A stretch of 64,000 nucleotides of DNA from a virus: IMG/VR virus record IMGVR_UViG_3300049427_000004, positions 114,867 through 178,866 of that record; one strand, written 5' to 3'. Both the position numbers and the translations under genes were made by a program. This document shows, piece by piece, positions 1 to 63,529 of this stretch (its first letter is position 1; every line of letters begins with the position of its first letter). The notes under the pieces are model-generated. The model did no database searches, was not told the origin of the DNA, and saw only the letters and a program-made list of their open reading frames with translations.

Positions 1-19
1 TCAACACGTTGCTAATTCA

Positions 20-271
20 TTGACTCATGACGACATGAAGGTTTTGGCTATTCTCATGGACAACGAAGCAAATGCTGGATTCAAAGCAATGAAGAACGCC
101 GATGTCTTACCTGCCACGCAGTTATCGGAAGCAACTTATCGTCGAATTATCTACCGTCTTAGTGCCAACAAATTTGTCGAAATTGTCACTCAACAAAAAA
201 TGCACATGCTTTACATTACTGAATTTGGAATGAATGCAATTCGAACCACAGTGAATGGAGTTGGTGCTTAG
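20..271 (+). CDS. Small winged-helix DNA-binding protein, TubR-like candidate (start uncertain)
   Basis: 83 aa, HTH-wing pattern (LPATQLSEATYRRIIYRLSANKFVEIV...LYITEFG); stop overlaps the tubulin gene start at 271. Confidence 0.6.
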   Translation: MTHDDMKVLAILMDNEANAGFKAMKNADVLPATQLSEATYRRIIYRLSANKFVEIVTQQKMHMLYITEFGMNAIRTTVNGVGA

Positions 272-1368
272 TGCTTGCTGTAATTGGCTTAGGTCAGGCA
301 GGATCAAACATTTCCGAAGAGGTTGGTAAATACGGAATATTGAATGGAGCAATAAATTACAGTCAGAAGGATCTCGATGCAGTTGAGGTTAAGCACAAAC
401 TCAGACTACTCGGCTCTGAGGGCGTAGGAAAACAGAGGTTTGATGCAATTAGTCTATTTCAACACCAATGGGAAACTGCAATTAACTTCATTCGTGACAA
501 CTTCAGTAATTCAAAGGTCATTGCATTCGCATTCTCTTCATCAGGAGGATCTGGTTCAGGAATTAGCCCAATACTGCTCGACATGGCTATCCAGATGTTC
601 CCTGATAAAGTGTTCATTTCTCTAGTGGTTATCCCTGAGATAAAAGAAGCAGAGTCTAGCCAAGTAAATTGTGTTTCGACATTTGAGGAGTTATCTGCTT
701 TAGATGTCGCGGTCTTTCCTGTCGACAACCAACAAATCCGTAATCAAAATCCTACTGTTGGAAAAAATCGACTTTATGAAATCTCAAATCAAGAAGCTGC
801 TTCCCTCATTTGTAAATTGGCTGAATATACAAGTAAACATTCTAAAAACGGGAATTTCGATGAAAAGGATCTCTTAACTGTACTAAGAACACGAGGATTA
901 GCAACAATTTCTGAAACACAACTATCATCATCTCTCCAAAGTATCAATCTCACATCTGAGGGTGTAGCAGATAAAGTCATCCAATCATGGGATAATTCAG
1001 TTTTTGCCCCACTTTCATCAGACAGTGTTCAAAAAGCAGCTGTCATATTTGACGGATCAGAATCTCTTATGGATTTCATTCGAGTAGAGACCTTATTTGA
1101 ATCCTTTCAAAATCAACCAGTAGATATTTTCGAGGGATATTATCACGAAGGTAAAGGAAAGATACTGACGGTCTTAACAGGGCTTAAATGGTCATTTAAG
1201 AGGTTAGATGATATTGAAAAATCACTTATTAACAAGCAAAATCATGATGAAAGTGGGATTTCATCTGATATCGGTTACAAGGTTGATTCAAGCATTATTA
1301 GAGCATCTGCTAAGAAACAAGAAAAGAAAGTATCAGTAATGGATATTCTAAGCAAATACAATCGCTAA
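271..1368 (+). CDS. tubZ: Tubulin/FtsZ-family GTPase (TubZ-like)
   Basis: GLGQAG N-terminal loop, SSSGGSGSG tubulin signature, NGNFDEKD T7-loop (NxDxxD), basic C-terminal tail; 365 aa. Confidence 0.88.
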   Translation: MLAVIGLGQAGSNISEEVGKYGILNGAINYSQKDLDAVEVKHKLRLLGSEGVGKQRFDAISLFQHQWETAINFIRDNFSNSKVIAFAFSSSGGSGSGISPILLDMAIQMFPDKVFISLVVIPEIKEAESSQVNCVSTFEELSALDVAVFPVDNQQIRNQNPTVGKNRLYEISNQEAASLICKLAEYTSKHSKNGNFDEKDLLTVLRTRGLATISETQLSSSLQSINLTSEGVADKVIQSWDNSVFAPLSSDSVQKAAVIFDGSESLMDFIRVETLFESFQNQPVDIFEGYYHEGKGKILTVLTGLKWSFKRLDDIEKSLINKQNHDESGISSDIGYKVDSSIIRASAKKQEKKVSVMDILSKYNR

Positions 1369-1394
1369 AACAAAATTAGAGGAGCGTGTTTATT

Positions 1395-1553
1395 ATGACA
1401 ATGAAACAAACTATGAAAACTTTGATGGATCTTAAAAATAACGGAGTAGATATTTTCTTAACAGATGCTGGTTGGTCTTTATTAGTGAGGATTACTGCTG
1501 AACTGGAGAAGAACGAGGAAATTTCGGGAGAAGATACAGATCAAGCGGTATAG
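1395..1553 (+). CDS. Small hypothetical protein, 52 aa (not in ORF track)
   Basis: GAGGAG upstream; ATG1395 open to TAG1553: MTMKQTMKTLMDLKNNGVDIFLTDAGWSLLVRITAELEKNEEISGEDTDQAV. Confidence 0.55.
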   Translation: MTMKQTMKTLMDLKNNGVDIFLTDAGWSLLVRITAELEKNEEISGEDTDQAV

Positions 1554-1565
1554 GACGGTGATAAC

Positions 1566-1736
1566 ATGAAAAAAAGAAATATATTGATCGCTGCAATCAT
1601 GGTTGGTGTATATATTACTCTCCCTGCTTATCGCTATTATGCCATTGGAAGCTATATTGGTTATAAAATCTTAGCTGATAAACAAAATGGCTATAAAGTT
1701 GTTGCAAGAAAGCAAAAGAAACTCATTAAGGCTTAA
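1566..1736 (+). CDS. Small basic membrane protein, 56 aa (not in ORF track)
   Basis: GGACGGTG RBS; MKKRNILIAAIMVGVYITLPAYRYYAIGSYIG...KQKKLIKA, one hydrophobic helix and a Lys-rich tail. Confidence 0.55.
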   Translation: MKKRNILIAAIMVGVYITLPAYRYYAIGSYIGYKILADKQNGYKVVARKQKKLIKA

Positions 1737-1749
1737 TGATAAGTCATTT

Positions 1750-1788
1750 GAGGGTAGAAAACGACAAAAGGACATCCTTTCTACCCTC
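1750..1788. repeat. 11-bp inverted repeat (hairpin, terminator-like)
   Basis: GAGGGTAGAAA (1750-1760) / TTTCTACCCTC (1778-1788). Confidence 0.6.
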
Positions 1789-1902
1789 TAGAACTCAAGA
1801 GTAGACTGTGGGCTATGTTATTGGGTCATCTCTTCCCCCAATATATTCGCATCCGTCAAAAAAAATGCATGTCATGCTTGTAACATTAGAAATTATATAG
1901 GA

Positions 1903-2310
1903 GTGATAACAATGGCTAGGATTGAGTCAATGACAATCAGCCAATTTATGAACCCTAATTACAATACTGAAAAAATATTAGATCCTCTCATCCGATTTTT
2001 AGATAAACACAAAGTAGTCTTTAGAGTTGTGGGCGTTACATTGATAATCTTTTCATCTGGTCTATTGGATACATCAGTATTTGCAGCAACAGGTATTGAT
2101 GAAGGAGCAACAAAAATATATGAGAAGCTTATTAATGTTGGAAAATGGGTCATTATCATTAAAGGTGGATGGGAGACCATCAATAACACCATCAAAGGAG
2201 ATTTTGATACTGCTAAAAAATCATTTCTCCAGTATTTAATTATATATGTAATACTTCTTGCTTTTCCTTGGGCTATGTCAGAGGTTGATGTTCTATTTCG
2301 TGATATATAG
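1903..2310 (+). CDS. Membrane protein, VirB2/TrbC pilin-like topology (likely start ATG1912)
   Basis: Hydrophobic leader ending SVFA|ATG (signal-peptidase-like), then two hydrophobic segments separated by a short charged loop. Confidence 0.55.
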   Translation: MITMARIESMTISQFMNPNYNTEKILDPLIRFLDKHKVVFRVVGVTLIIFSSGLLDTSVFAATGIDEGATKIYEKLINVGKWVIIIKGGWETINNTIKGDFDTAKKSFLQYLIIYVILLAFPWAMSEVDVLFRDI

Positions 2311-2321
2311 GGGGTATCCAA

Positions 2322-2618
2322 ATGATTATTAAAATAAATCACATTCCCCTATCTGATATTGCAGATTCATTGTTCTTTCCTGAAGAAGCAAAAGAAACCG
2401 TTAAAGAATGGGCGAAAGAACAAGTGCAGGAAGCCATTATGGGAGCATTAGAAGCCATAAAAGAAGTTCTAGTCGATTTGAGTTTTAGCTTAGCATTAGT
2501 AGGAGGTGTATTATGTGTCCTGTTCTGGGTTGTAGGCTGGAAGGACGGTAAGAGGTGGGCAGCAATACTATTCCTTGCTAATGTGTTAATAAAATTACTT
2601 CTTGGTGGTGCTGCATAA
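2322..2618 (+). CDS. Small two-TM membrane protein
   Basis: 98 aa, two C-terminal hydrophobic helices; stop overlaps the ATPase start (TAATG). Confidence 0.7.
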   Translation: MIIKINHIPLSDIADSLFFPEEAKETVKEWAKEQVQEAIMGALEAIKEVLVDLSFSLALVGGVLCVLFWVVGWKDGKRWAAILFLANVLIKLLLGGAA

Positions 2619-5017
2619 TGAAAAAATCAATAAAATTGAGCGATTATATTCAAATTATTAGGCCAGAATACGTCTTTCTTAAGCTTAAACCTAATAATTC
2701 CATCAGAAATAATGGAACCCATAAGGTCGCAAGAGCCATTAGTGGATTGTATAGGAATGTTTTTGAAAGCATTAAGCGTGAAGAAGAGAAACTGGTAAAG
2801 TTGTTTGGCAAAGAATTTATATTACCTACCAAGATCAGTATCCACCCAAATATAAAAGTAGGATACTTAATATACATGGAAAAGAAAAAAGTGGATTTTT
2901 ATCTAATTGTGCCAAAAACTCAATTATCATTTATCAAAGAAAAAATTAGTGATGTCTGGACTAATATTACTATTGATCAGATTGCAGTACTCCCCTGTTT
3001 TACTGACAATTCAACTAAGCACCAAATTATATATAAAAAAGAAGACGGATTGAGTTTAGCAGTAGATAGAAGAAATAACGAATTATTGAACAGTAATCTG
3101 AATGTTGTTGAGATGCTGGAGGAAGGTGATCGAGTTGGCGTTTTTTACAACTTCCTCCCTTCAACTCAACATGGTTGGAAGTTTAAACACAAAGCAACAA
3201 TTGATAAATATAAAAGTGGTAAACCTGTGGATCGCAATAAAGCTGGTTGGTCTTATATTCTTAGGTGGGGTGCAGCTACTATCGATGGAGTCTTAGCGTC
3301 TTTCGCGGAAGCAATATCAGGCAGTGATGGTAAATCCAAAAGTAAAGATGAAGATGACGTAGGATTGTTAACAAAATTATTTGAGGGAATGAACGGACAA
3401 AAGAAACTAAGCGATTGGTCATTAAAAAAGGGGAACTCTTCTACCCTTCCGCTACAAATTGTGACCATGACAGATAGCACAGACAAAATTCGCGAGAGAA
3501 ATATTTCAAGAAGTCTAGCTCAAAGCTTTGATACAATCAGTGAGGATAATGAATTAATTTATAAACCCTTTAAAAAAACATTTAACTATACAGATTATTC
3601 TATTGGCGCAGAACGTAACTGCATAGGTGATGAGGAAGCTCAAAATTTCCTGTCTTTGGCAGGAAGAGATGTGCTAGAGAGATATAATTTTATTGAAAAA
3701 GTAGAAACAAATGAAACAGAAGTTCCAGAAGATCTACAACAAGGAGTGATGTGTATTGGTGAAAATATATATCGAGGCAAAAAACAACGAGCCTTTTTAA
3801 GCAATGATATTGAATTTAGAAATCTCCTACTATTACTCATTGGCCCCACTCGCGCAGGTAAAAGTAATTTAATTAGCCATTTAAGTATAGATGCAATTGA
3901 AAATGGCGAGTGCGTGATTATTTTCGACTTTATTGAAAACTGTGAATTAAGTGATAGTGTCGCAAAGCTTTTTCCAAAAGAAAAAGTATTGGAAATAAGG
4001 TGTGATGATTTTAACGCTATGCAAGGACTCGGATACAATGAAGTCGGTAAAAGCAATGACACTTTCAAGCAATATGAAAACGCTAAGCGTCAAACTACAA
4101 ATGTGCTCACATTAGTCAATTCAATTAATGCGGATGAAAGTCGATTAAGTCCTAAGATGGAACGATATTTAGAAAGTGCTAGTCTAATCGTTTTTATTAG
4201 CAATGGAAGCATAAAGGATGTATTTGGTGTTCTTACTAATTTTAAAATCAGATATCAGTATCTTAAAAAAGTTCCCATGACTCAGTTTGAAAATTTAGAA
4301 GAATACATTGATAACTTGCATGAGCTTGATGAAACTGATAAAGAGGGATTGGTTACTGGAACAAAAACAAATCTTATCGTAGGAATTATTGACCGACTAA
4401 ACACACTTAAGCGAAATACCTATATGGAACTCATGCTTAAAAAAGATACATCGAAGAACATTGACCTTAGCGAAGAAATGCAAAAAAATCAATTAATTGT
4501 TGTTCGGATGCCTCAATCGATGTTCACTGTTGATAGCGAACGAGATGTCTACACTCTCTTCTGGTTAAGTAAACTCTGGCTTGCAGCTCAGGTTCGAGCG
4601 GAAAGAATCAAGGATAAGACTAAGAGAACAAAAATTAATCTTGTTATTGATGAATTGTATCAAGTGTCGAATACCGAGAAATTTCTAACAACCAAACTAT
4701 CTCAAATGGCTAAATTCATTGTGAAGCCAATAGTTAGTTGTCACTATATAAACCAGTTAAAACATATGAGAGATGAATTAAGAAGTGCTAATACTTCATA
4801 CATGCTCTTAGCTGGATCAGATAAGAAAAATTATGACGAATTAAAAAACGAACTATTTCCATTTACTGATGAAGATCTTAAAGATATGAAACGATATTAC
4901 TCGATGAACTATGTAAAAAACAAAGACGGATACTCTCGGTTCATTACTGCTTTACCAGATAAAGTAGAAAAAAGAATCAAAAAAGGAACGGTGAAAACAG
5001 ATGATATTAAAAATTAA
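2618..5017 (+). CDS. VirD4/TrwB/HerA-FtsK superfamily P-loop ATPase (coupling-protein-like DNA translocase)
   Basis: Walker A GPTRAGKS, VIIFD strand, Walker B LVIDE, SCHYINQL resembling the AHQYLxQL motif of T4CP-like ATPases; 799 aa. Confidence 0.75.
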   Translation: MKKSIKLSDYIQIIRPEYVFLKLKPNNSIRNNGTHKVARAISGLYRNVFESIKREEEKLVKLFGKEFILPTKISIHPNIKVGYLIYMEKKKVDFYLIVPKTQLSFIKEKISDVWTNITIDQIAVLPCFTDNSTKHQIIYKKEDGLSLAVDRRNNELLNSNLNVVEMLEEGDRVGVFYNFLPSTQHGWKFKHKATIDKYKSGKPVDRNKAGWSYILRWGAATIDGVLASFAEAISGSDGKSKSKDEDDVGLLTKLFEGMNGQKKLSDWSLKKGNSSTLPLQIVTMTDSTDKIRERNISRSLAQSFDTISEDNELIYKPFKKTFNYTDYSIGAERNCIGDEEAQNFLSLAGRDVLERYNFIEKVETNETEVPEDLQQGVMCIGENIYRGKKQRAFLSNDIEFRNLLLLLIGPTRAGKSNLISHLSIDAIENGECVIIFDFIENCELSDSVAKLFPKEKVLEIRCDDFNAMQGLGYNEVGKSNDTFKQYENAKRQTTNVLTLVNSINADESRLSPKMERYLESASLIVFISNGSIKDVFGVLTNFKIRYQYLKKVPMTQFENLEEYIDNLHELDETDKEGLVTGTKTNLIVGIIDRLNTLKRNTYMELMLKKDTSKNIDLSEEMQKNQLIVVRMPQSMFTVDSERDVYTLFWLSKLWLAAQVRAERIKDKTKRTKINLVIDELYQVSNTEKFLTTKLSQMAKFIVKPIVSCHYINQLKHMRDELRSANTSYMLLAGSDKKNYDELKNELFPFTDEDLKDMKRYYSMNYVKNKDGYSRFITALPDKVEKRIKKGTVKTDDIKN

Positions 5018-5240
5018 CGGCTCACCAATTAGTGAATCTATCAGTGTATGTGAGGACGGTTTGAATTTCAACTTGGATCTTTGTGATTTGTATGATATTG
5101 TTCACACACCTGTTAATGTGGACATCTCTTATAATGGTCATAATATTATCAATGGAGACATCAATACATTTAATTGGGCGCAGTCTGGAGTTGAAAAAAT
5201 TGGTGACGGAATAGGATTAATAATCGATCATTTATTCTGA
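5001..5240 (+). CDS. Hypothetical protein, 79 aa
   Basis: Overlaps the ATPase stop; followed by a terminator. Confidence 0.55.
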   Translation: MILKINGSPISESISVCEDGLNFNLDLCDLYDIVHTPVNVDISYNGHNIINGDINTFNWAQSGVEKIGDGIGLIIDHLF

Positions 5241-5272
5241 GGAGTCCCAAAAGGACTTCTCTTCCCTTTTTA
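5239..5272 (+). terminator. Intrinsic terminator closing the tubulin/ATPase region
   Basis: GAGGAGTCC-caaaa-GGACTTCTC followed by a pyrimidine/T run. Confidence 0.6.
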
Positions 5273-5292: not shown

Positions 5293-5322
5293 TTGACAAA
5301 TCTTTGGAAATGATGTTACATT
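5293..5322 (+). promoter_or_regulatory. SigA-type promoter for the RNAP operon
   Basis: TTGACA (5293) - 18 nt - TACATT (5317) with extended TG. Confidence 0.6.
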
Positions 5323-5414
5323 GATCTTGCAAACAAGAGATAAATATTCTTGATTTGCCGAATCTTATTAGAGAGGGTTGATTAAATAAAAAATATGAAA
5401 AAGGTGATTTTAAG

Positions 5415-5627
5415 ATGGGGAATCTATCAAGGTTGACGTGGCAGGACGCTTACTATGACGGTAATATTGACGAACGTTATGAAGTATTTTGCGAAGAGAA
5501 TCAGAATACATATGCAAGAAAAGGGAATGACGGATGGGACACACATACCAGCAGCGACAAGAGGTATGAAGATGATTTTTCATATGAACGAAAGTTGATG
5601 AGTGGAGAAATAAAACGGATTAGGTAG
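5415..5627 (+). CDS. Small acidic hypothetical protein, 70 aa
   Basis: AAGGTG RBS, ATG start; first gene after the SigA promoter. Confidence 0.65.
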   Translation: MGNLSRLTWQDAYYDGNIDERYEVFCEENQNTYARKGNDGWDTHTSSDKRYEDDFSYERKLMSGEIKRIR

Positions 5628-5639
5628 GTGAAACTATAG

Positions 5640-6929
5640 TTGGAAAGCAATTATGTTAAATTGTGGTTTGCATATGATATTAATAACCAAATAACCTACA
5701 TATCAAGTATTAATGAATCTAACAAATACAATACATATAATTGTCCTATTTGCTCATCTACCGTCATACCAAAAGCGCTTAATTCATCAAAAGTTGCATC
5801 TCATTTCGCCCATGACGATTCGACTCAGTGTAATTCAGAGACAATGATTCACTGGTGGTTTAAAAACAAATTTATTGAATGTGGCGATAGAATAATAATC
5901 CATGGACAAGATAAAACATACATCTGTTCTGAAGTAATTGTTGAACAATCAATACATACTTCTCATGGCATTTATCGCCCTGACATTACGATCAAAACAA
6001 AATGTAGCGAAATTATATATTTTGAAATGAATTATCGAAATAAGAAGAAAACTGAAGATTATATAGATAAATGGTTAGAGTTAAAGAAAACAGTTGTAGA
6101 AGTAGACATTAAAGACTTGTTGTTAGGTAATGAAGCATCTAGCTTTACTCCCCTTTTCTCCAATGGAAAGATAATTAATTCTAAGAAGAATGATACATAT
6201 TACAATACCATCGGTAAGTATAAAGAAATTGTTCTGTATGATTTTGTCACAGATGAGCAAAAGAAAAGAATTGAAAAATTGGATTGGTTATGGCGTGAAA
6301 TAACAAATTATAAACTCGGAACCATTTCAATAGATCGTATTTCCCTAATTATCGATTCCATTGATCAGGAAGGCAGAGGCGTTGTAGATGAGGTGCTAAA
6401 GTCAGCAAAATGCAGTAAACTTTATAAAGATTATAAAAACTATAAAAAACAATTTGAAGAACTCCAACTAGATTTTACTCCAGAAGACCTAACTAATAAA
6501 GTATCATTTGTGAATGAAAATCAATGCATTAATCCTTACGAATTAAAATTAGTTAGTACCAAAAAATACAAATCAGAAAGTTATTATAATGGCAGCAGAA
6601 AGCATATGTATAAAACAAGACAATATTTTAGCCACTACACTTTTTCAGTGGTACTGAAGTGTAAAGAAAAAATAATTAATCGTATTTCAGTATTAAATAA
6701 AGATTATGAGAAACTTGTTAATACAAATTTTCTCACTGAATGGACTATTCAAATTACAAAAAACCATAAGATTGGTAACAGATGCGTAGAATGCAATAAG
6801 GTATTTAATATGGAGTTTAAAGAGTTGAAGTATTATTCAGACAAAAATTTTAAAATTCCAAAACGTTGCCCTGTATGTAAAAGTAAAAGAAAAAACAATC
6901 AAGATCGGAGGACTTCTATTATTGAGTAA
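5640..6929 (+). CDS. CoiA-like PD-(D/E)xK nuclease with N-terminal Zn finger and C-terminal zinc ribbon
   Basis: CPIC...HFAH...C, YRPDI...IYFEMNYRNKK nuclease motif; C-terminal CVEC...FKIPKRCPVCK. Confidence 0.65.
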   Translation: MESNYVKLWFAYDINNQITYISSINESNKYNTYNCPICSSTVIPKALNSSKVASHFAHDDSTQCNSETMIHWWFKNKFIECGDRIIIHGQDKTYICSEVIVEQSIHTSHGIYRPDITIKTKCSEIIYFEMNYRNKKKTEDYIDKWLELKKTVVEVDIKDLLLGNEASSFTPLFSNGKIINSKKNDTYYNTIGKYKEIVLYDFVTDEQKKRIEKLDWLWREITNYKLGTISIDRISLIIDSIDQEGRGVVDEVLKSAKCSKLYKDYKNYKKQFEELQLDFTPEDLTNKVSFVNENQCINPYELKLVSTKKYKSESYYNGSRKHMYKTRQYFSHYTFSVVLKCKEKIINRISVLNKDYEKLVNTNFLTEWTIQITKNHKIGNRCVECNKVFNMEFKELKYYSDKNFKIPKRCPVCKSKRKNNQDRRTSIIE

Positions 6930-9702
6930 ACAAAAATCCAGTTTAAAATACATATTTAAAATCAACTCGTCGCGAATAAGAAGTGCGAATTGGAATCTTA
7001 ACCTATCCTCTTCTGAAGCATTTAAAAACGAGGAAATTGTTTCATTAGCTGATAGCACAACTCTTAGATTCATAAGGAATATCAAAGGTCTTAATGATGA
7101 TGAAATTGAAAATCAAGTTAAAGTAACAAAAAAACAAATTAAAATATTAAAATCATATCCTACAACACCTGAACATAGAAAGAATATCAGAAAACAGTAC
7201 GATTTATTGTTCGATTTGACGTTTGTCAAGGATTATATATGCATTGTTATGGACAGCAATAAAGACTTTGACAGGTTGAATAGCAAAAAAGGATTCTATA
7301 TAAACGGCGTTAAATTTAAACGACTCTTGGCTACAACAGGAGGAGCAAAAAATAGCACCGTTGTATACGTAAGTGATTTGATACATAGCGAGTTAAATAT
7401 ACGTCTAGAAAACGGTAGAGATGCAAGCAAACCTTTTGTTCCAGCTAAGCTTGAGGCCTACAAGTCTCTAGCATGCAGCGCAAGCGTCACAGTACCAAAT
7501 CCAACAGGAATTTTAGTTGTGAATGACTGCGTAACAAATTTCACTTCGGACATAGTCAAGATTGATGACACCTATGGTGAGTATCCTTCAATGACATATG
7601 AAAAAGACAGCATAGTAGAGTTAAATGATAGTGATGGATATGGTTTGATCCTCCCTTCTCTCAGCAAGCATTGGGCCGAATTTTTAGGAGAAGATTACAC
7701 CCCAAGTGGTTATTGTTTGAGGGGATCATTTACAAAGGGTATGGTTTTTAGTTTTGACTTTCTTGATTTTGCGAATAAAATATCTGGAACAACTAAAGTC
7801 ATAGATGCTTGGGGAAATATGAAGGATTTAATTGATGATCAGATTCAATTAATTCTAACAACTTCTATGTTAAAACTGTGGGACAGTTACAACAACATTG
7901 AACATTACCTGCGTTGTTGTGATGAAAACGGTTATGAATGGAGTGTCACCAAGGTAATACCGAAGCAGCTTGAAAATGAAAGAAATTTAAACTACCAATT
8001 CATACAATCTTTAAATCTCAGTGACAATGATATTGATGAATTAATTGAGCCTACAATTACAGAAATCAAAGATGTTCTAAGTGAAGATTGGAGAAAAAGT
8101 CTGCTGTTCTTAAAAGGATCGCATTTACATGATAAGAGCTTTACACAATCGGATAGTGATTTCTCAAAAGCACTAATGGTAGACAAAGAAATGATAAAAG
8201 ATCCATTTGTAAGAACAAGAATACATAATATGACTAAAAAAAGAATAAACGATGCCAAAACAGGAGTTCTCAGAGTAAAAGGAAATTTTTCTATTGTTTC
8301 AGGAGACCCGTATAGCCTCTGTCAGTCGATTTTTGGTATGGAGGTTACGGGATTACTCAAGGCAGGAGAATTTTATTCGAATTACTGGAATGAAAAGAAT
8401 ATTGATAAGGTGGCATGCTTTAGAGCGCCAATGACATGTCACAATAACATACGAATACTTAGATTTAAAAATACTGAAGTTATGAACTATTGGTATCAGT
8501 ATATGAGCACTGTTACAATTTTTAACTCATGGGATACGACAGCTCACGCCTTAAATGGTTTGGATAAAGATGGCGATTCAGTAATGACTACCCCATCCCC
8601 TGTCATCCTTAGGGCAATTAGAGAGTTAGAAGCAATCTTATGTGTACAAAAAACAGCAAATAAAATCATTGCCACAGAAGATGATTTTATAAAAGCAAAC
8701 AAGAACAGTTTTGGAGATGCCATAGGTTCTATAACCAATCGAATCACATCTATGTTCGACGTTCAAGCAAAGTATGACAGAGCAAGTGAAGAGTACAAGG
8801 AATTAGAATACAGAATTATCTGTGGTCAGAATTATCAGCAAAACGCAATAGACAAGTCTAAAGGAATCGTAAGTAAAGCGATGCCAAAAGATTGGTATGA
8901 TTACAAATCAAATATGCCTTCTAATGATGAAGAAGAAGATATTAATGAGCAAAGGGATTTTAATATAAGCATCTTAGCTGATAAAAAACCGTATTTCTTC
9001 TCATACATATATCCACATTTGATGAAGCAGCATAGACTATACATAGCAAATACAACCAAGAATGCTTACAAACGATTCGATCTAAGTGTTGAAGAATTAA
9101 TTGCAAAAGAAGGTAAAAATGAAGATGAAGAGAATTTTCTAAAGTTTTATCATTATAAAACTCCTCTTTCAATGGCTGATTCAGTAATGAATAATATTTG
9201 TCGTAAAATTGAGGGTGAGTTTGATAACGTTAGAGTCACCCTCAAGAAAGTTGAATTTGATCATACAATACTTATGAGTAACGCTACTTATACTAAGGGT
9301 CGGTTTGCAGCTATAAAGGAACTTTATAAGCAATACCTCACTCAGGTTAGGGAATATGTAAAATCATCTAAGTCGATGAAAATTGATAAAGATGAGCGAC
9401 AAAGTAAACGTGCTGAATTTGTGGAATCCTTTAAAAAAGAAGCATCAATGCTTTGTAATTGTATAGAGGAGCTAACCAATATTGTAGTTGAAGTTTGCTA
9501 CAGCAACGGAAGCGATAATTCTAAGCAATTTGCTTGGGACATATGTGGAGAACAAATGATCAAAAATTTACTTAAGAGGAATAATAATACGATCCACTAC
9601 CCCGTATTGGATTCACTTGGAGACATCGAATTTGGTGGAGAAAAATTTAAATTAGTTTCTAATGTATTGGAGGATTGCGATATTGAAAGTAGTTTTAAAT
9701 GA
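6922..9702 (+). CDS. yonO: YonO-like single-subunit (double-psi barrel) phage RNA polymerase
   Basis: 926 aa; catalytic NGLDKDGD (DxDGD), FRAPMT motif; located upstream of HU and the late genes as in SPbeta. Confidence 0.88.
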   Translation: MSKQKSSLKYIFKINSSRIRSANWNLNLSSSEAFKNEEIVSLADSTTLRFIRNIKGLNDDEIENQVKVTKKQIKILKSYPTTPEHRKNIRKQYDLLFDLTFVKDYICIVMDSNKDFDRLNSKKGFYINGVKFKRLLATTGGAKNSTVVYVSDLIHSELNIRLENGRDASKPFVPAKLEAYKSLACSASVTVPNPTGILVVNDCVTNFTSDIVKIDDTYGEYPSMTYEKDSIVELNDSDGYGLILPSLSKHWAEFLGEDYTPSGYCLRGSFTKGMVFSFDFLDFANKISGTTKVIDAWGNMKDLIDDQIQLILTTSMLKLWDSYNNIEHYLRCCDENGYEWSVTKVIPKQLENERNLNYQFIQSLNLSDNDIDELIEPTITEIKDVLSEDWRKSLLFLKGSHLHDKSFTQSDSDFSKALMVDKEMIKDPFVRTRIHNMTKKRINDAKTGVLRVKGNFSIVSGDPYSLCQSIFGMEVTGLLKAGEFYSNYWNEKNIDKVACFRAPMTCHNNIRILRFKNTEVMNYWYQYMSTVTIFNSWDTTAHALNGLDKDGDSVMTTPSPVILRAIRELEAILCVQKTANKIIATEDDFIKANKNSFGDAIGSITNRITSMFDVQAKYDRASEEYKELEYRIICGQNYQQNAIDKSKGIVSKAMPKDWYDYKSNMPSNDEEEDINEQRDFNISILADKKPYFFSYIYPHLMKQHRLYIANTTKNAYKRFDLSVEELIAKEGKNEDEENFLKFYHYKTPLSMADSVMNNICRKIEGEFDNVRVTLKKVEFDHTILMSNATYTKGRFAAIKELYKQYLTQVREYVKSSKSMKIDKDERQSKRAEFVESFKKEASMLCNCIEELTNIVVEVCYSNGSDNSKQFAWDICGEQMIKNLLKRNNNTIHYPVLDSLGDIEFGGEKFKLVSNVLEDCDIESSFK

Positions 9703-10456
9703 ACAAGAGTTAATTGATCAGTCTCTTCTAAATAAGACATTCGATGAAAATAATTATGGGACTATTCTTAGAGTCCTAGCCAAACATTATTTCTCAATTG
9801 GCATGGATCAACAACAGGTCAAGGATACTTTGGTTTCTCATATAAGAGTTCGAGTAAAACAATACATACATAAGGAATGGAATAATCGTATTGATTATGC
9901 AGTAAAATCCGTAAAAAAATATGGCTATGAATTGGTTGATATTCGTGAGGTCATTATTACCATGAGTGAATTAACCACTCTTAAAAGCATCAATGACAAT
10001 GATCTTGAGAAAATTGCATTTGTATATCTAATTTATGGTAAGATATTTAATCAAATAAAAAAGACAAACGACAATTGGGTAAACATTAAAATTAAAGAAG
10101 TACTGGTTGATGCAAAAATAAATAAAGGCTATAAATCAACAAGAGAACAACAAAGAGCCTTGCGAATATTAAATGAGCTAGGAATATTGAGAAGTTCAAG
10201 GAAAGTGGATAACACCAGTGAGCGAGTGTGTTTTATTGATGAAGCAAGTGAGCCTGTAATCAAGATCAGTGATTTCAGGGATTACGTTCTAGAATATTTA
10301 AAATGGAAAGGTGAAAATGTAGGTAGTTGTGAATCGTGTTTCAAGCTAATTCAAGTGCAAAGTAATCGGAAAAAATACTGTAACATTTGCTGGAAAGATA
10401 AGTGGAAACAGTATAATGCAGAAAAACAGAGAGAATATAGAAACAAAAAATTGTAA
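9683..10456 (+). CDS. Hypothetical protein with C-terminal zinc ribbon, coupled to YonO (track start 9662; TTG9683 fits the RBS)
   Basis: GGAGG at 9669; CESC...YCNIC followed by a basic helix; overlaps the yonO stop. Confidence 0.75.
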   Translation: MKVVLNEQELIDQSLLNKTFDENNYGTILRVLAKHYFSIGMDQQQVKDTLVSHIRVRVKQYIHKEWNNRIDYAVKSVKKYGYELVDIREVIITMSELTTLKSINDNDLEKIAFVYLIYGKIFNQIKKTNDNWVNIKIKEVLVDAKINKGYKSTREQQRALRILNELGILRSSRKVDNTSERVCFIDEASEPVIKISDFRDYVLEYLKWKGENVGSCESCFKLIQVQSNRKKYCNICWKDKWKQYNAEKQREYRNKKL

Positions 10457-31943: not shown

Positions 31944-32375
31944 TTGACAAAACTAAACCAGAATTTCGAAATGTTTGATGGTAACACAAAAAACATAATT
32001 ATCAATTCTTACAATTCAAATAATGAATTGATTGATCTAAATGGCGCAAGAGTCAGATGGGTATTAAAAACTTCATCTAAGAAGTTAGAAAATGTTATTG
32101 AAAAAACAATGAGCAATGGTATTACTATCGAAGGCTTAGGCAAGATCAAGATTAAACTTAATTCTAGCGACACACGTGGACTTTGTGGAAATTATCATCA
32201 TGCATGTGAATTGATTGATTCCTTCGATAATGTTTCAACCCTCTTAATTGGTTTGGTAACAATAAAAGATAGTGGTTTACCAGCAGAAGACGAAGGTATT
32301 CCAGATGCAGATGGTGGTACGTTTTTAATTTTTGATGATACTGTAGTTTTTGATGGAGGTATATTTAATGTCTAA
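31944..32375 (+). CDS. BppU-N-like Ig adaptor protein
   Basis: IDLNGARVRWVL...IKIKLNSSDT..L.G.Y.H pattern. Confidence 0.6.
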   Translation: MTKLNQNFEMFDGNTKNIIINSYNSNNELIDLNGARVRWVLKTSSKKLENVIEKTMSNGITIEGLGKIKIKLNSSDTRGLCGNYHHACELIDSFDNVSTLLIGLVTIKDSGLPAEDEGIPDADGGTFLIFDDTVVFDGGIFNV

Positions 32376-35300
32376 GATTCTAGCTAAGATTCAAATAAAA
32401 AGAGGTCTTAAAATAGACTTGCCAGTTCTGGATAATGGTGAGTTTGGTTTTTGTAATGATACTAAAGAATTATTCATTGGAACTACATCAGGAAATTTGA
32501 TGATATTTCCTGTAAATAATTCAGGCGGCTCAATTACCGTAGTCGATAGCACAATAAATGGAAATATAGTTGTTAATGGAGTTCAAATTAAGGTGTTCGA
32601 TGATTCCTTAATACAAGAATCACTTTCAAACAAAGCAGATATTAATCACTCTCATCAAGAATTACATAATCATGCAAATTCACTCGTTATAAATGAGCTT
32701 TCAAATACTGATGGAAGATTGACATACAACGGTCAACAAATTCCATTTACTGATGATATTCCTGATGTACAGGTTATTGATGATAATTCAACGACTAGTA
32801 CCACAAAAACATGGAGCGCTGAAAAAATAAATACGTCAATGGCTTTGAAAGCACCTACTATTCACTATCATTCTATAGATGATATTCAAGGTGTTGATGC
32901 TTCAGCAAAAGTTAATGGCTATGTTCTTCAGTTTGACGCTTCTGTTGGCAAGTATTTGTCGAAAGCACTCCCTGCTGGTAATGGAACTGGTGCTACAAGT
33001 CTTAGTGGATTATCAGACGTAGATGATTCTGTTACTCCACAAGAAGGTGATCGTTTAGCTTTTGAAGGTGGTCTTTGGAAACCGAAAAAAGGAAGCGATC
33101 TATTACAATTTAATAATACTTATCAAATTGAGTTAGATAGATGGCATATCAAACGAGATGGTACTGACTCCGTTGCTACAGGAAAAGGCATTAATGATGC
33201 AATACAATGGGCGAAAACCAACGGTTATAATCACGCTGTTTTGCCAAATGGTTATTATAGAGCAACCTTAAACATTATCAAGAAAAACGGTGTTGATTAC
33301 CTGAATGGTTATTTTCATAGCTTAGTTAGAATGCCAAGTGATTTTCACTTTGAGTTGAGCAGAGAAGCTATAATTGAAATTGAATCCAATTCAAGTGGTA
33401 ATCATGAGGTTATTCTATTTTATAGAGCTATAAATTCAAAAGTATCAGGTGGAAAGATAATTGGAGATCGTAAAAGACATATATCTGAACTTGGTATTAA
33501 ATTTGTAAGAGGTGGAGTAAACCCTGATGGCTCTTTAAATAATGATATTAATTGGATACGCAGTGAAGTAATTGATCGATATAAAGATCCAATTTTGACA
33601 AAGCTTTTCAGAATATGGTCAAACACTTCCTTGCCAAATGTTACTGGATATAATTTTTATCAATACAAAGATACTATTTCAGCATTAACTTTGGTAGGCA
33701 GTCGAACTGATGGCCTATTTGCACCAACTGCGCCTACAGGTCGAGGATGGTTTGAAGGAGATAGACTTGATTTAAACAATAAGTTAATTATATCAATGAA
33801 TATTTCAAACAACCCTTTAACTGATACACAACTTTCAAATTTAAAGGTAAAGCTAGATAATCAATATTACACCCATGAAAGTGGTCATGCTATTGCTATA
33901 TTTGGTGGCTATAAGGTAGAGGTTAGCAACATGGAACTGTGTAATATGATAGGCGATGGTGTACTAACAGGTACTGCCTATGATTATAGAGCAGACGGAG
34001 TTTATGACCTAGTAGCTCTTAAAGATCAAATTGGTTCATTTATCTATCTGCATGATCTAAATATTCATCGCTGCCGCAGACAAGGAATTTCCTTATGTGG
34101 GCAAAATGATCAATTTGTTTACAATAATGAGATCCATCACATTGGTAAAGATGACGATGGAGTAACTTCAGATTTTACAGCTCCTGCTTTTGGAATTGAC
34201 ATAGAATCAATGGCTGGAGAAAGCAATATCCCATACAAACACCTTTACTTTGGAAGAGATGGATTAGAAGTGAATTATAGAATTCATATATATAATAACT
34301 ATATTCATCACAATGAAAGAGGTCACCTAGTCAATCCAGATGGTACTTATGTAACAGTGGAAAACAATGTTTTTGAAGGATACAACATTGGTGGTGTAAG
34401 TTCAGATCGTCGATTCAAGCATGTAAAATTCTTAAATAACACTCTAATCAATTGTGAGCAATGGGTAACTGGCGACAACATTGTAAACGGAACAAAAATT
34501 GAGGGTGGAAATATGAGGCTCATGGATATTGAAGGAGCCTTCATTAAAGATGTAAAAATTAAAGACGGAATGTTTTACGGTAGTGCAGTTTATGGACACT
34601 TTGGTGTTCCTCAAGTTGATGTTTCTACAAGCACCTTTACCTTCACCAGAGAACATGGTATGGGAAATACAGCAAAGGTTTGTTTTGATAGTTGGGAAGG
34701 CAAGATTCCAAAAGGATTGAAATCAGATACCATTTATTATGTTATCAATAAGACTACTTATGGTTTTCAGGTATCTGAAACTGAAAATGGAAAGGCTGTA
34801 GTTTTCTACGATTCGGGTGAAAATGGATTTACAGTTTCCAGATACAACTACGGAAGAGTTTTCATAGATGGCGTAACAGTTGAAAGGGATTTTAAAACAG
34901 ACTCCAAAGTTGCTTTTTACCCTGCTACATCAGGTGGTGTCATCAAAAACATAACAGTAAAAAACTATGATGTTACTATCGATGGCGGTTCCAAGGATTA
35001 TGCAGGTAGGCCAGTTTCTGTTGACAATTTAACAGTAATTGAAGGCAAAACAACACTAAGCAACTGTCAGGTAAATGGTGGGAGGTTCATTTCAAATACT
35101 TACAATGATGTGTATTTGGGTACAGTAACTGATTATAATAAATATCAACGTGCTGAAATAACAAACTCCACATTTATCAACCAAAAGATTTTCATGGGTG
35201 AAAGCACTATTAGTAACAGCACAATAAAAAAAAGTGTGGTTCACAAAGAAAATAATAGATTCAAATCTATTATAATTAACAGCTACTTACAGAATACAGA

Positions 35301-37113: not shown

Positions 37114-37126
37114 AATGTAGCCTCAG

Positions 37127-37166
37127 TTCATCTACAGGAGAAAGTAAGCCCTCTCTTGTAGATGAA
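37127..37166. terminator. Long hairpin after the appendage gene
   Basis: TTCATCTACAGGAGA / TCTCTTGTAGATGAA. Confidence 0.6.
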
Positions 37167-37286
37167 TACTAATAAAACAATAAATCGAAATTATATTAAA
37201 AAAATACATATTGCCTAAGAGCCTAAAATCATGTATTCTTTATTAAGAACAAATTGATCTTTAAAAAGAATGCATAGGAGGGGCAA

Positions 37287-38465
37287 ATGAAAACCGATCA
37301 AAGATTTACGCAATTAGATTCTTTACGAGGACTGGCTGCCCTATTTGTCGTGTTTCTACATATTTCTCTAATCTTCCCAGAAACACACCTGTCAAAGTTA
37401 CTGCTTGAGTACAGCCCGTTAAGATTATTAGTTTCTGGCTCTGAAGCTGTAATATTGTTTTTCGTGCTAAGTGGATTTGTTTTATCGAGGCCGTTCTATA
37501 CAAATTCTAATTCTAACTATTTCACATTCCTAATAAAACGCATATTGAGAATATATAGCCCTTATATATTTGCAGTTATTTTATCGATCTTATGCGCGAG
37601 AATTTTTTATCAGGGGAAAATAGAGGGTTTAAGTGACTGGTTTAATGTGATATGGACTGGGAAAATCTCAGGTATAGTGGTGACAGACCATCTGCTCTTG
37701 GTAAAAACCTTTTTGAGCAATTTAAATCCAGTGATATGGTCATTAGTTCATGAGATGAGAATTTCTATTATTTTTCCTTTAATAATGATTTTTATTGTAA
37801 AGATGAACTGGAAAAAAGGAGTGTTGTTTGGAATTTCCTTATCGCTTCTAAGCACCATACTTTTTCTAACTTTTAAAGTGGGCAATGACGGAGTTGAAAT
37901 GATTAACACTTTACATTACACTTCTATGTTTGTATTAGGTGCAATAATATCGAAATACTTCTCATCTATAACTAATCGAGTTATCAAAATGAGTAGAATT
38001 CAGAAATTCTTATTATTCGGTTTTGGGATAATGATGTACATCTATGCCAAACCTTCTTTCGTAATTGCGACATTCATCTATCCCGACATAGCACCTTTCT
38101 ATAGAACTGTTCTAGATAGTTGGTTTGTTGCAGTTGGGTCAATGATTCTTATTGTTTTCTCTGTATCTTCTCGATTATTTTCAAAAATTTTAACTTTTAG
38201 CCCAATTAGATACTTAGGGAAAATATCGTACAGTCTTTACCTTTCCCACATTCTAGTCTTAGTGTCAATGTTCCAGCTATTACATGGGGCAGTTCCTGTT
38301 TTGTTAATATGTCTACTAAGTTTAGTGACTTCAATTGCCATATCAAGCCTTATGTATCATTTCATTGAGTTACCATCAATAACTCTAAGTAAAAGGTTGA
38401 CAAAGAAAATAGGAACGTTTCGAAACACTGGATCAGAAATTGTTCCCAAGTCAGTTGTTAAGTAA
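37287..38465 (+). CDS. Acyltransferase-3 (OafA-like) membrane O-acyltransferase
   Basis: LDSLRGLAALFVVFLH, AVILFFVLSGFVL, KRILRIY, WSLVHE, LGKISYSLYLSH, YHFIE motifs; ~10 TM. Confidence 0.93.
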   Translation: MKTDQRFTQLDSLRGLAALFVVFLHISLIFPETHLSKLLLEYSPLRLLVSGSEAVILFFVLSGFVLSRPFYTNSNSNYFTFLIKRILRIYSPYIFAVILSILCARIFYQGKIEGLSDWFNVIWTGKISGIVVTDHLLLVKTFLSNLNPVIWSLVHEMRISIIFPLIMIFIVKMNWKKGVLFGISLSLLSTILFLTFKVGNDGVEMINTLHYTSMFVLGAIISKYFSSITNRVIKMSRIQKFLLFGFGIMMYIYAKPSFVIATFIYPDIAPFYRTVLDSWFVAVGSMILIVFSVSSRLFSKILTFSPIRYLGKISYSLYLSHILVLVSMFQLLHGAVPVLLICLLSLVTSIAISSLMYHFIELPSITLSKRLTKKIGTFRNTGSEIVPKSVVK

Positions 38466-62587: not shown

Positions 62588-62654
62588 GTCTTCACCCCAT
62601 TTGTGTATACTTAATACTATATCAGATACTAAGCAATTAGGGGTATAATGCAGC

Positions 62655-62710
62655 TTAATTTAATGTTGTGTTTTATGAAAATGCATCCCTTGGGCGCTTA
62701 TTCCTGCCGC
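62655..62710. other. Probable attR junction
   Basis: AT-rich phage DNA switches to GC-rich host coding sequence at ~62685; in-frame stop at 62676 just upstream of the headless host reading frame. Confidence 0.7.
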
Positions 62711-62813
62711 GGCTATTTGCGGAGTAGATCCCTTCGAGCTCGCGCGCCGCAATTTGAAGCCAGTGCTTATTGGGCTTACGGTGACGACAATCGTCGCTAT
62801 GTTCTTGATTTAA
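62685..62813 (+). pseudogene. 3' fragment (42 codons) of a host membrane transporter gene split by the prophage; recalls B. subtilis YcgA C-terminus (unverified)
   Basis: IPWALIPAAAICGVDPFELARRNLKPVLIGLTVTTIVAMFLI*; no start codon or RBS. Confidence 0.7.
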
Positions 62814-63381: not shown

Positions 63382-63433
63382 TAATAGTCCCCTGACCTTT
63401 ATCTATAATAGGCAAAAGTAGCCTTTAAGCTTA

Positions 63434-63460
63434 GACGAGTATAACTGGGAAAATGTTGCA
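63434..63460 (-). promoter_or_regulatory. ECF sigma (SigM/W/X-like) promoter candidate
   Basis: TGCAAC - 17 nt - CGTC on the minus strand upstream of the CSC gene. Confidence 0.4.
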
Positions 63461-63529
63461 AGGTTGGGAGCATATAAAAAGGCTGTCTCTACTACAGCAT
63501 ACGCTGCGATAGAAACAGCCTTCCATTTG

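Follow-up and report, generated by a model that had tools for sequence, protein, structure and literature searches.

A pilin-topology membrane protein, a small protein with two transmembrane helices (2-TM) and a soluble ATPase whose modelled folds point to the VirB4 type are encoded one after the other in a large, SPbeta-like phage, directly after its tubulin genes, and this trio is a conserved membrane and ATPase module of type IV secretion system (T4SS) ancestry. The identity of the parts, as read below, we hold to be very probable. The DNA-handling role of the module is the uncertain step, and for it we tentatively favour a T4SS-derived membrane station that would receive or move phage DNA delivered by a filament. 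A literature search found no description of the module or of its job. The stretch analysed, here called the window, comprises 64,000 nucleotides of a 179-kb record (178,866 bases).

Layout of the locus and its noncoding element

The three genes and a small ORF all lie on the + strand, between positions 1912 and 5240. The first gene, c1 (1912-2310, 132 aa; its ORF is open from 1903, with an ATG at 1912 and the ribosome binding site AGGAG), is followed by c2 (2322-2618, 98 aa) and by the ATPase gene (2618-5017, 799 aa), which overlaps its preceding gene by ATGA. A 79-aa ORF (5001-5240) that is kept in the closest relative only (a cluster of 2 loci) overlaps the 3' end of the ATPase gene. The operon is closed by an intrinsic terminator (5239-5271, + strand; a 9-bp stem with 5 GC pairs and a T-tract, tail TTCCCTTTTT), so that the single terminator which a first-pass annotation of this DNA had placed at about 5240 is confirmed, as a hairpin with T-tract, at 5239-5261. 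A sigma-A-like promoter is found beyond it, at 5293-5322. When the first 9 kb were compared by megablast with a phage collection, no match was obtained.

Upstream, and on the same strand, the window opens with the 3' part (2-271) of a gene in the position of tubR, encoding 130 aa and starting at base 114745 of the record, 122 bases left of the window. The 130-aa protein has no Pfam match and is TubR-like by position only; its family (cluster c15) precedes TubZ in five loci. It is followed by a TubZ-type tubulin GTPase (271-1368, 365 aa) that matches Pfam Tubulin (E 1.9e-12, 48.3 bits against a cut-off of 33) and the PHROG family 'tubulin PhuZ' (E 7e-7), and whose nearest phage relatives are those of Bacillus phage G (24%) and of C. 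botulinum c-st and D-1873 (26%). Two small ORFs come next (1386-1736), encoding proteins of 55 aa and of 56 aa, the latter with one TM. The 55-aa product is conserved in TubZ-type loci, where it resembles by eye the proteins of cluster c30 (loci L005-L007); in the BLAST clustering it shares its group (c66, 2 loci) with a single other locus. At the 3' side of the tubZ operon there is a long hairpin (1750-1788, + strand; 11-bp stem, 17-nt loop) that has no T-tract and was not called in the terminator scan; in L005 and in L006 a T-rich run comes after the equivalent hairpin. The trio is indeed co-oriented with the tubulin pair, as had been stated, but the two do not simply form one unit, since this hairpin and a noncoding cis element lie between them.

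The cis element (1784-1884, + strand; alignment of 29 copies) consists, in this order, of a box TAGAC..GGGCT, a hairpin with the arms ATTGGG and CCCAAT (1820-1842), ATATTCGC, an A-run and ATGCATGTCA (1865-1874). It is about 85-100 bp long, and its position and orientation relative to the module vary. The hairpin was defined by hand and then tested by covariation against shuffles: it scored 0.463 in the 29-copy alignment versus 0.22 in shuffles, a value reached by 0 of 500. RNAalifold, run on the MAFFT alignment of the element, predicted no structure. With a model of the element, 31 of 57 viral loci show one copy each, as do further genome loci; host genomes have one match each, always at a module, and the controls none. 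Rfam gave no match at gathering score in two element-bearing loci; the constant parts (TATGC, about 16 nt, ATGCAWGTAC), inspected by eye on both strands, fit none of the B. subtilis sigma A, B, D, E, F, G, H, K, L and ECF consensus sequences, and mini-ORFs starting from the element's two ATGs are not conserved. A loose likeness to the MOBQ nic region or to the SpoIIIE recognition sequence failed across copies. The element could equally well be an operator or a small RNA.

The ATPase and its membrane partners

The motifs GPTRAGKS (409-416), LVIDE (675-679) and SCHYINQL (707-714) of the ATPase are present as first annotated, and both Walker A and Walker B are intact in its P-loop domain, which is of the FtsK-HerA type. 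Among 49 relatives with 21-54% identity, G414, K415, D678, E679, R545 and R593 are invariant. The protein belongs to phrog_5156 (E 1.2e-84), has no TM helix or other hydrophobic segment anywhere in its 799 aa, and consists of an N-domain (1 to about 365) and the P-loop domain (about 368-787). Sequence comparison with the PDB gave weak matches to B204 (1.9e-4), HerA (4.5e-4), TrwB (5e-3) and, from a profile, VirB4 (0.048), which reach no further than the FtsK-HerA superfamily and from which the family can therefore not be placed. Neither the window ATPase nor its homologues from L004, SP8, 031MP004 and D6E match Pfam CagE_TrbE_VirB or AAA_10 at E <= 0.01.

Predicted structures were more telling (AF2 models, pLDDT 81.8 and 84.2). 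The best fold match of the C-domain model is VirB4 (4ag5_A, Z 26.9, rmsd 3.5, 340 residues aligned), followed by TrwB (Z 25.1), DndH-C (25.0) and HerA (23.3), with FtsK weaker at about 16; as TrwB and DndH-C lie within 2 Z units of VirB4, the C-terminal half appears to match VirB4, TrwB and HerA about equally. The N-terminal ~360 residues were folded alone (pLDDT 84, pTM 0.80) and searched against 48,161 chains: here the best fold is that of TrwK/VirB4 residues 34-424 (Z 15.0, rmsd 3.5, 234 aligned), the next one reaching Z 8.2, and with Foldseek TrwK chains account for eight of the nine top listed matches (best E 2e-4). The ATPase had initially been taken for a coupling protein of the VirD4/TrwB type, to which the VirB4 fold of its N-terminal 360 residues, the missing TM anchor, a TrwB_AAD_bind score of 17.4 bits (below the cut-off of 20.5) and the lack of any match to PF02534 (T4SS-DNA_transf) across the whole 179-kb record are opposed. 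According to its models it is probably a VirB4-type ATPase instead.

This also corrects the statement that relaxase, VirB4 and VirB6 are all missing: the ATPase is itself the VirB4-like component, so that 'no VirB4 in the window' is wrong, and the absence of the other two holds. The 179-kb record contains no match to the three families searched, Relaxase, Rep_trans and Replic_Relax, and the replication-relaxation or MOB gene sought to the left of the window was accordingly not encountered there within these families. TrbL/VirB6 was likewise not found in the record, nor does a complete T4SS lie to the left of the window or anywhere else in it. Elsewhere in the window, a polytopic 392-aa protein is encoded at 37287-38465; considered as a VirB6 candidate, it was rejected as an Acyl_transf_3 acyltransferase.

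The c1 protein has an N-terminal tail of about 35 aa, a signal-like hydrophobic stretch that runs up to the boundary between VFA and ATG, an amphipathic/hydrophobic helix (GKWVIIIKGG) after this leader and a C-terminal TM; across the family the leader ends with a conserved (F/L)A immediately before TGID, with an AxA site. This is the topology of TrbC/VirB2, with a long leader, a signal-peptidase site, two hydrophobic helices and a mature part of about 70 aa. The window protein has no Pfam match, PF04956 included, and among 26 members of its family PF04956 gave a single match (E 0.065); a c1 profile yielded nothing useful against PDB sequences and Pfam, and an ESM Atlas link from c1 to a TrbC cluster (score 0.88) is no more than a lead. 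Phage 031MP004 carries a distant module, and there the gene preceding the ATPase matches Pfam TrbC/VirB2 (E 6.5e-6) and T4SS_pilin (E 3.1e-5). Its product aligns with c1 in hhalign at a probability of 1%, and a leader motif V-x-T-V-G-S-I/V-S-E/D-F is common to it, to c1 of L010 and L030 and to D6E. The earlier designation of c1 as VirB2-like is a matter of topology and of the shared leader motif, not of membership in the TrbC/VirB2 family.

The second membrane protein, c2, is assigned to phrog_5422 (E 1.8e-6) and forms a C-terminal 2-TM hairpin with the conserved loop GW(K/R)DGxRW. In most relatives this anchor is fused to an N-terminal M23 peptidase, a peptidoglycan hydrolase placed on the extracellular side, and the window copy is the anchor alone; a related stand-alone M23 gene exists in this phage 32 kb from the module. 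A c2 of M23 length or an adjacent M23 gene, that is a membrane-anchored cell-wall hydrolase, was found in 45 of 68 loci. A predicted complex of the ATPase N-domain with the 2-TM anchor scored 0.00, which is uninformative either way.

Carriers of the module and their filament genes

Relatives of the ATPase form 486 clusters at 50% identity, and 63 and 60 of the 68 non-redundant loci with the ATPase also encode c1 and c2, respectively, so that the association of the three genes is far beyond chance. Carriers are temperate phages, phage-plasmids and virulent SPO1-like phages. The module is often located at a prophage end, with the lysis genes on one side of it and the attachment site on the other, a divergent XRE gene accompanies it in 50 of the 68 loci, and in one phage-plasmid it adjoins the terminase genes. 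Nearly all plasmid carriers (34/35) are predicted to be non-mobilizable, and Pfam scans of the neighbours of the module revealed no VirB6, VirB5 or VirB8-like parts. All carriers seen are endospore-forming Bacillota or phages of these. With SpoIVA as a proxy for spore formation, 22 of 22 ATPase-positive genomes are positive versus 272 of all 401 Bacilli sampled (hypergeometric probability roughly 1e-4, uncorrected for phylogeny, with which sporulation is confounded).

The link to a cytomotive filament that had been proposed for this phage extends to about half of the loci, where the filament comes with its DNA-binding adaptor: a filament gene lies just upstream of the module in 33 of 68, encoding an actin-like protein (ALP) in 28 and TubZ in 5. 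The other half has no filament gene within 6 kb, and the filament is therefore a frequent rather than an obligate partner. In phiCp-D a ParM gene is found near the module on the opposite strand, and D6E and the virulent Herelleviridae phage SP8 have an ALP ahead of it. The latter, which infects B. subtilis, keeps the same gene order, with an ATPase alignable over about 800 residues, an ALP 32% identical to that of L030 and, over the stop of the ATPase gene, a Replic_Relax gene (E 4.7e-13). That either actin or tubulin can occupy one and the same slot is an argument for a common task. In the prophage CGP3, AlpC and AlpA push phage DNA to the membrane and are required for efficient replication (PMC4446434), and in plasmid R1 conjugative transfer is enhanced by ParM, which binds the VirB4-like TraC (PMC4949242).

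Possible functions and relation to known systems

If the module is a membrane station for phage DNA, the filament would push the genome, via an adaptor bound to phage DNA, to the cytoplasmic membrane, where a VirB4-type hexamer held by the two membrane proteins would capture it. The captured DNA might then either be tethered for replication or inheritance, or be threaded through a wall-spanning opening that the M23 hydrolase would help to make, and the cis element could serve as a DNA handle or as a regulatory site. The coupling to Replic_Relax in SP8 and the module-specific cis element speak for a connection to DNA. Against this reading stand the modules without filament, the position of c1 outside the TrbC family and the window anchor devoid of M23. 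Moreover, VirB4 in known systems powers assembly and pilin extraction, we know of no VirB4 ATPase that binds or pumps DNA itself, and with VirB6-like channel, coupling protein and relaxase all missing, the module completes none of the DNA routes known from T4SSs.

The established role of VirB4 is in pilus biogenesis and in the dislocation of pilin. This role would be retained if the module were a surface or contact apparatus, in which the ATPase would pull the pilin-like c1 out of the membrane and assemble from it a short pilus, or a fibre spanning the wall, with the M23 enzyme cutting the hole. Such a structure might act in adhesion, cell-cell contact, protein export or hydrolase release, not on DNA, and the neighbouring filament genes would simply belong to what a plasmid-like maintenance region usually contains. 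The conjugative-pilin topology of c1, the TrbC-like protein in the same slot of 031MP004, the frequent wall hydrolase and the many loci without a filament gene agree with it. We nevertheless consider it unlikely: VirB6, VirB5 and VirB8-like parts did not appear in the Pfam scans, the Replic_Relax gene of SP8 points to DNA, and coincidence would hardly account for the swap of actin for tubulin or for a synteny conserved between temperate phages and SP8.

Decidedly unlikely, in our view, is a role in superinfection exclusion or defence, in which the module would be a 'moron' at the prophage end with an XRE repressor of its own and would use its ATPase, of the HerA/VirB4 clade, and the membrane partners to block or expel incoming foreign DNA or to kill the infected cell. 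Its location and the divergent XRE gene would suit such a role, as would the similarity of the C-domain to the defence ATPases HerA and DndH-C (Z 23-25) and a weak PADLOC match to mad8 (E 7e-8). However, the N-domain is specific to VirB4 and not that of HerA, a nuclease, Sir2 or other effector partner is missing, the module also occurs in virulent phages and beside terminase genes, and its linkage to partition filaments would be left unexplained.

That a relaxase-less, VirB4-powered conduit, loaded by the filament via the cis site, moves whole phage genomes across a membrane, either to the forespore by way of the sporulation septum or to a sister cell, appears quite improbable to us. We give even less credit to the stripped-down pump of the VirD4/TrwB type that the first-pass annotation had envisaged as a way for phage DNA, once excised, to reach the forespore or a neighbouring cell: what survives of that interpretation is the conserved module of T4SS ancestry with its recurrent filament link, and what falls is its coupling protein. 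The restriction to spore-forming hosts, which would favour the pump, is confounded with host phylogeny, and no sporulation-sigma promoter consensus was seen by eye upstream; the C-domain does share its fold with TrwB, but N-terminal TM, PF02534 match and relaxase are lacking, TrwB_AAD_bind remains below cut-off and the N-domain is VirB4-like. That phage-plasmids captured a conjugative element and that the module is what remains of it, decaying and without function, as the mere three T4SS-like genes, the non-mobilizable plasmid carriers and truncated ATPase copies of 442 aa in three Paenibacillus loci could suggest, is extremely improbable given 486 clusters with full-length conservation and invariant catalytic residues, synteny across distant phage types, and intact, translationally coupled frames.

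To our knowledge, VirB4 is the one ATPase common to all T4SSs and as a rule does not occur outside complete conjugation or effector machines. In these phages, a probable VirB4-type motor makes up a self-contained module together with two membrane partners and a wall hydrolase, and this module is repeatedly wired to both kinds of cytomotive filament that move DNA. Were it the docking or crossing site of filament-borne phage DNA, it would provide phage actin and tubulin transport of DNA with the membrane end that is still missing, since the AlpAC and PhuZ/TubZ literature, as far as we know, describes the filament and no receptor; it would also show a minimal working T4SS core; a genome conduit, if true, would be a virion-independent route of phage inheritance or spread. 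Since homologues are present in the B. subtilis phages SP8, 031MP004 and SP-10, the matter can be put to the test directly in a standard genetic system.

Among known systems, the closest counterparts of the ATPase are the VirB4 proteins (R388 TrwK, Thermoanaerobacter VirB4, TraC of F/R1), with which it shares a length of about 800 aa, a soluble two-domain build, both domain folds and the pilin-topology and small 2-TM proteins encoded directly upstream, an arrangement comparable to virB2-virB3-virB4 and to comB2-comB3-comB4 of H. pylori. It differs from them in having no match to the Pfam VirB4 families, in its about 10-16% identity in structural alignments, in its linkage to actin and tubulin genes and in occurring without VirB6, VirD4 and relaxase. 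The crenarchaeal Ced system and related archaeal DNA import move DNA without relaxase or coupling protein by a minimal T4SS-derived set of a VirB4-like ATPase and small pilin-like membrane proteins, which the phage module would resemble; Ced, however, is cellular, is not known to have a filament partner and includes the polytopic, VirB6-like CedA, a type of protein that the phage module lacks. Gram-positive conjugation cores (ConB-ConE/CwlT of ICEBs1, PrgI-PrgJ-PrgK of pCF10, Tcp of pCW3) likewise have one or more small membrane proteins followed by a VirB4 ATPase, with a membrane-anchored peptidoglycan hydrolase as an integral part, but they depend in addition on VirD4, on a relaxase and on proteins like VirB6 and VirB8, whereas the hydrolase of the phage module consists of an M23 domain joined to a 2-TM hairpin at its C-terminus, and carriers of the module are predicted to be non-mobilizable. 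With the filament systems TubZRC (pBtoxis, c-st) and ParMRC/Alp7/AlpAC, for which we know of no dedicated VirB4-type membrane module, the locus has in common the upstream TubZ here and the ALP_N actins and RHH adaptors in relatives. The DNA pumps VirD4/TrwB and FtsK/SpoIIIE/TraB, finally, share with the phage ATPase a P-loop domain of the FtsK-HerA superfamily with a helical insertion, whereas the phage protein stands without TM anchor or relaxase and carries an additional N-domain of the VirB4 type.

The VirB4-type ATPase and its locus

Three genes of the window form a compact module: c1, a pilin-topology membrane protein (ATG at 1912, preceded by an AGGAG site, end at 2310), c2, a 2-TM hairpin anchor (2322-2618), and a 799-aa ATPase devoid of TM segments (2618-5017) whose start overlaps the c2 stop (ATGA). 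A 79-aa ORF (5001-5240) overlaps the ATPase end; the unit is closed by a hairpin with T-tract (5239-5261), beyond which lies a sigma-A-like promoter (5293-5322). Upstream lie TubZ (271-1368), a clear Tubulin-family protein, and a 130-aa gene occupying the TubR position, which starts just left of the window. The first-pass annotation had described the trio as co-oriented with this tubulin pair and closed by one terminator. The ORFs and the closing hairpin were confirmed. A long hairpin without T-tract (1750-1788) and a conserved noncoding element separate the tubZ operon from c1, so that trio and tubZ are not plainly one transcription unit.

The IMG/VR virus record comprises 178,866 bp (completeness rating 93%), of which the window is the final 64 kb (bases 114867-178866). 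The coding strand switches from minus to plus at ~114.7 kb, which places the module at the divergence point, heading the rightward genes toward the virion and lysis genes. Geobacillus virus E3 (37%) and SPbeta/phi3T (23%) have similar virion proteins, and the nearest ATPase relatives are from Paenibacillus and related Bacillaceae. At the left end of the record (bases 16-4595) are genes for 13-TM and 15-TM transporter-like proteins, and at the other end (window 62001-64000) GC climbs to 0.42; host sequence flanking an integrated prophage is probably part of the record. Directly 3' of the module, a 429-aa protein (window 5640-6929) combines an N-terminal CoiA_N domain (competence protein CoiA, E 7.5e-8) with a treble-clef zinc finger at the C-terminus, and is not conserved among the relatives examined. 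It is followed by a 926-aa protein (window 6922-9702) matching phrog_25339 (E 2.5e-206) and phrog_35857, to which PHROGs assigns no function; a 169-kb relative (L003) encodes a 917-aa protein at this position.

Sequence profiles placed the ATPase poorly. Pfam returned TrwB_AAD_bind and nSTAND3, both below threshold, and no match to the VirB4 families; PHROGs gave phrog_5156 (unknown function, E 1.2e-84), a profile search of PDB sequences yielded weak matches to the FtsK-HerA superfamily, and relatives are named 'hypothetical', 'VirD4-like' or 'TraD' in databases. With an AlphaFold model (pLDDT 81.8), the best Foldseek match was full-length TrwK/VirB4 of R388 (E 4.9e-13). The C-terminal domain (368-787) aligned in VIA-align with Thermoanaerobacter VirB4 (Z 26.9), TrwB (25.1), DndH-C (25.0) and HerA (23.3), and much less well with FtsK (Z ~16). 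Since this domain alone was indecisive, residues 1-362 were folded separately with 24 homologues (pLDDT 84.2, pTM 0.80) and compared, independently of Foldseek, with 48,161 representative chains. The sole strong match was TrwK/VirB4 residues 34-424 (Z 15.0, rmsd 3.5, 234 residues), the runner-up reaching 8.2, and Foldseek agreed. On these models the ATPase has VirB4 architecture, i.e., a soluble protein of ~800 aa in which a VirB4 N-domain precedes a P-loop domain of VirB4/TrwB type, and is a very distant VirB4 member. The earlier assignment to the VirD4 coupling type is thus abandoned, as the protein lacks a TM segment and its N-domain matches TrwK/VirB4. Walker A, Walker B and two arginines are invariant in 49 relatives with identities down to 21%, so that an active NTPase is expected from the sequence.

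Membrane partners and an apparently displaced hydrolase

The c1 protein begins with a polar N-tail and a hydrophobic, signal-like stretch that ends VFA|ATG, followed by an amphipathic helix and a C-terminal TM segment. In phage 031MP004, the gene preceding the ATPase matches TrbC/VirB2 (E 6.5e-6, just below the cut-off) and T4SS_pilin, and its product shares the leader motif V-x-T-V-G-S-(I/V)-S-(E/D)-F with c1 of Geobacillus phage D6E and of two further loci (L010, L030). The mature parts of the TrbC-like protein and c1 can no longer be aligned; the common leader, together with the TrbC/VirB2 match, ties the c1 slot to conjugative pilins.

The 98-aa c2 of the window, an acidic helix followed by a 2-TM hairpin, corresponds in its entirety to the C-terminal part of the ~220-aa c2 found in most loci, which begins with a Peptidase_M23 domain (E 1.4e-23). 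At one locus (L031) the domain order is reversed and an extra N-terminal TM segment is present, which, together with the basic loop GW(K/R)DGxRW, suggests that the M23 domain lies outside the membrane and the loop inside. The window phage has the anchor without the M23 domain. Its record carries a stand-alone M23 gene 32 kb away (bases 84976-85437, minus strand; L049:1417-1878), encoding a 153-aa protein that shares 33% identity (E 3e-24) and the start MKF.LS with the M23 domain fused to the c2 anchor in relatives, and has neither signal peptide nor TM segment. Apparently the hydrolase became detached from its anchor and was relocated.

Six-frame HMM searches of the whole record detected no T4SS-DNA_transf (VirD4), Relaxase, Rep_trans, TrbL/VirB6 or Replic_Relax; a complete T4SS left of the window, which by the first-pass annotation would have refuted its proposal, did not turn up. 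The only polytopic protein near the tail genes, considered as a VirB6 candidate, is a 392-aa Acyl_transf_3 acyltransferase; it follows a 1587-aa tail-fibre-like protein (Mtd_N, beta-helix, CHB_HEX_C, three fn3; both within window 32350-38465) and is possibly a surface-modifying (lysogenic conversion) gene.

Distribution of the module and its cis element

Loci were collected from species-representative genomes (40), IMG/VR (77) and by exact look-up (two), ORFs were called and clustered, and HMMs were built. After collapsing ATPases of >90% identity, 68 loci with at least 4 kb of upstream sequence were counted. Among these, c1 was found in 63 and c2 in 60, an XRE regulator lay nearby in 50, the M23 form of c2 or a separate adjacent M23 gene occurred in 45, and a ribbon-helix-helix-like protein preceded c1 in 37. 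An ALP_N actin-like gene was present at 28/68 loci and a TubR-TubZ pair at five. Half of the modules have no filament gene inside 6 kb, indicating that the filament is a frequent partner and not required. Three Paenibacillus loci (L036-L038, 10001-11416) retain a 442-aa C-terminal ATPase fragment (72% identical), lack c1 and c2, and are decayed copies.

The filament link extends to distant phages. In Clostridium phage phiCp-D, the ATPase comes after a replication gene and c1-like and c2-like genes, with ParM close by on the opposite strand; in phage D6E the order is an ALP_N 'partition protein', two RHH genes, an unannotated c1-like gene, the ATPase and the integrase. The virulent, SPO1-like Herelleviridae phage SP8 of B. 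subtilis encodes an Alp7A-like actin (E 4.4e-27), a 141-aa protein, two small TM proteins and a 906-aa ATPase that aligns to the module family across ~800 residues; a Replic_Relax protein (PF13814, E 4.7e-13) whose start overlaps the ATPase stop completes this coupled block (L045, MW001214.1, 1330-6840). SP8 makes the module tractable in B. subtilis. Matches occur in 35 plasmid records, 32 of them from Clostridium and 34 predicted to be non-mobilizable. The one plasmid examined, the non-mobilizable 59-kb pNPD12_2 of C. botulinum (L127, NZ_CP014147.1), is a phage-plasmid in which the trio directly precedes the small and large terminase genes (5352-10359).

A noncoding element of ~85-100 bp lies upstream of c1 in most Bacilli-type loci (window 1784-1884, core 1820-1874), with copies in loci L003-L034 and others (alignment A4, covariance model R1). 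It comprises a box (TAGAC..GGCTAAGG), a 7-bp hairpin of variable sequence, (C)AGC-WTATGC, ~16 A-rich bases and ATGCAWGTAC; TATGC and ATGCAWGTAC are its two constant boxes. Compensatory change is evident in the hairpin: covariation was 0.463 compared with 0.22 in shuffles (0/500 reaching 0.463) and 0.08-0.17 when slid, and six of the seven pairs have double changes. The covariance model found one copy per locus in 31/57 viral loci and in further genome loci, and a weak copy at the expected place in phiCp-D. A stringent pattern matched once per host genome, always at the module, and never in controls; one extra match revealed that its host genome carries a second, divergent module (L048, G405:C1:364000-378000), found solely in this way and encoding a 909-aa ATPase (23% identical), an M23-anchor protein and an XRE regulator. 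The element is specific to the VirB4-type module. At most loci it stands before c1 in the same orientation, at times directly adjoining the ribosome-binding site; in a subgroup it is found on the opposite strand, immediately 3' of the XRE gene, and in the divergent module likewise on the opposite strand, immediately 3' of the ATPase. This variation argues against a simple promoter or 5' leader and agrees with either an independent small RNA or a DNA site acting in cis, possible DNA sites being an operator or an oriT-like or centromere-like site.

Proposed function and relation to known systems

In T4SS platforms, VirB4 hexamers occupy the cytoplasmic face, where they drive assembly and the extraction of pilins. 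For the module described here, the set of parts, how they are conserved and how they are linked are established by the data. We tentatively propose that c1, c2 and the VirB4-type ATPase form a membrane station to which a filament would bring adaptor-bound phage DNA; the station would either tether this DNA or pass it through the envelope, the M23 hydrolase opening the wall for passage. In prophage CGP3, the actin AlpC and its adaptor AlpA push phage DNA to the membrane and are needed for efficient replication (PMC4446434), and ParM of R1 binds the VirB4-like TraC, TraD and TraI, conjugation starting poorly without ParM and ParR (PMC4949242).

A pilus-like or contact structure unrelated to DNA appears unlikely, and we give rather little credit to an exclusion or defence module. 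The first-pass proposal of a VirD4 pump sending DNA to the forespore is improbable given the VirB4 architecture; its spore component has circumstantial backing, as the carriers seen are without exception endospore formers or phages of such hosts, and SpoIVA occurs in 22/22 positive genomes against 272/401 overall in a sample of 401 Bacilli, a difference confounded with phylogeny. A dead remnant, with the catalytic residues invariant, is hardly credible.

Literature searches found no paper on the module. New here are the separate N-domain fold test, the relationship of M23 hydrolase and anchor, the extension to SP8, D6E and 031MP004 with their Replic_Relax and TrbC-like partners, the plasmid mobility census and the cis element. 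The tethering or passage of filament-delivered DNA stays our tentative reading; the module itself is a T4SS-derived machine in a new, reduced, phage-borne form.
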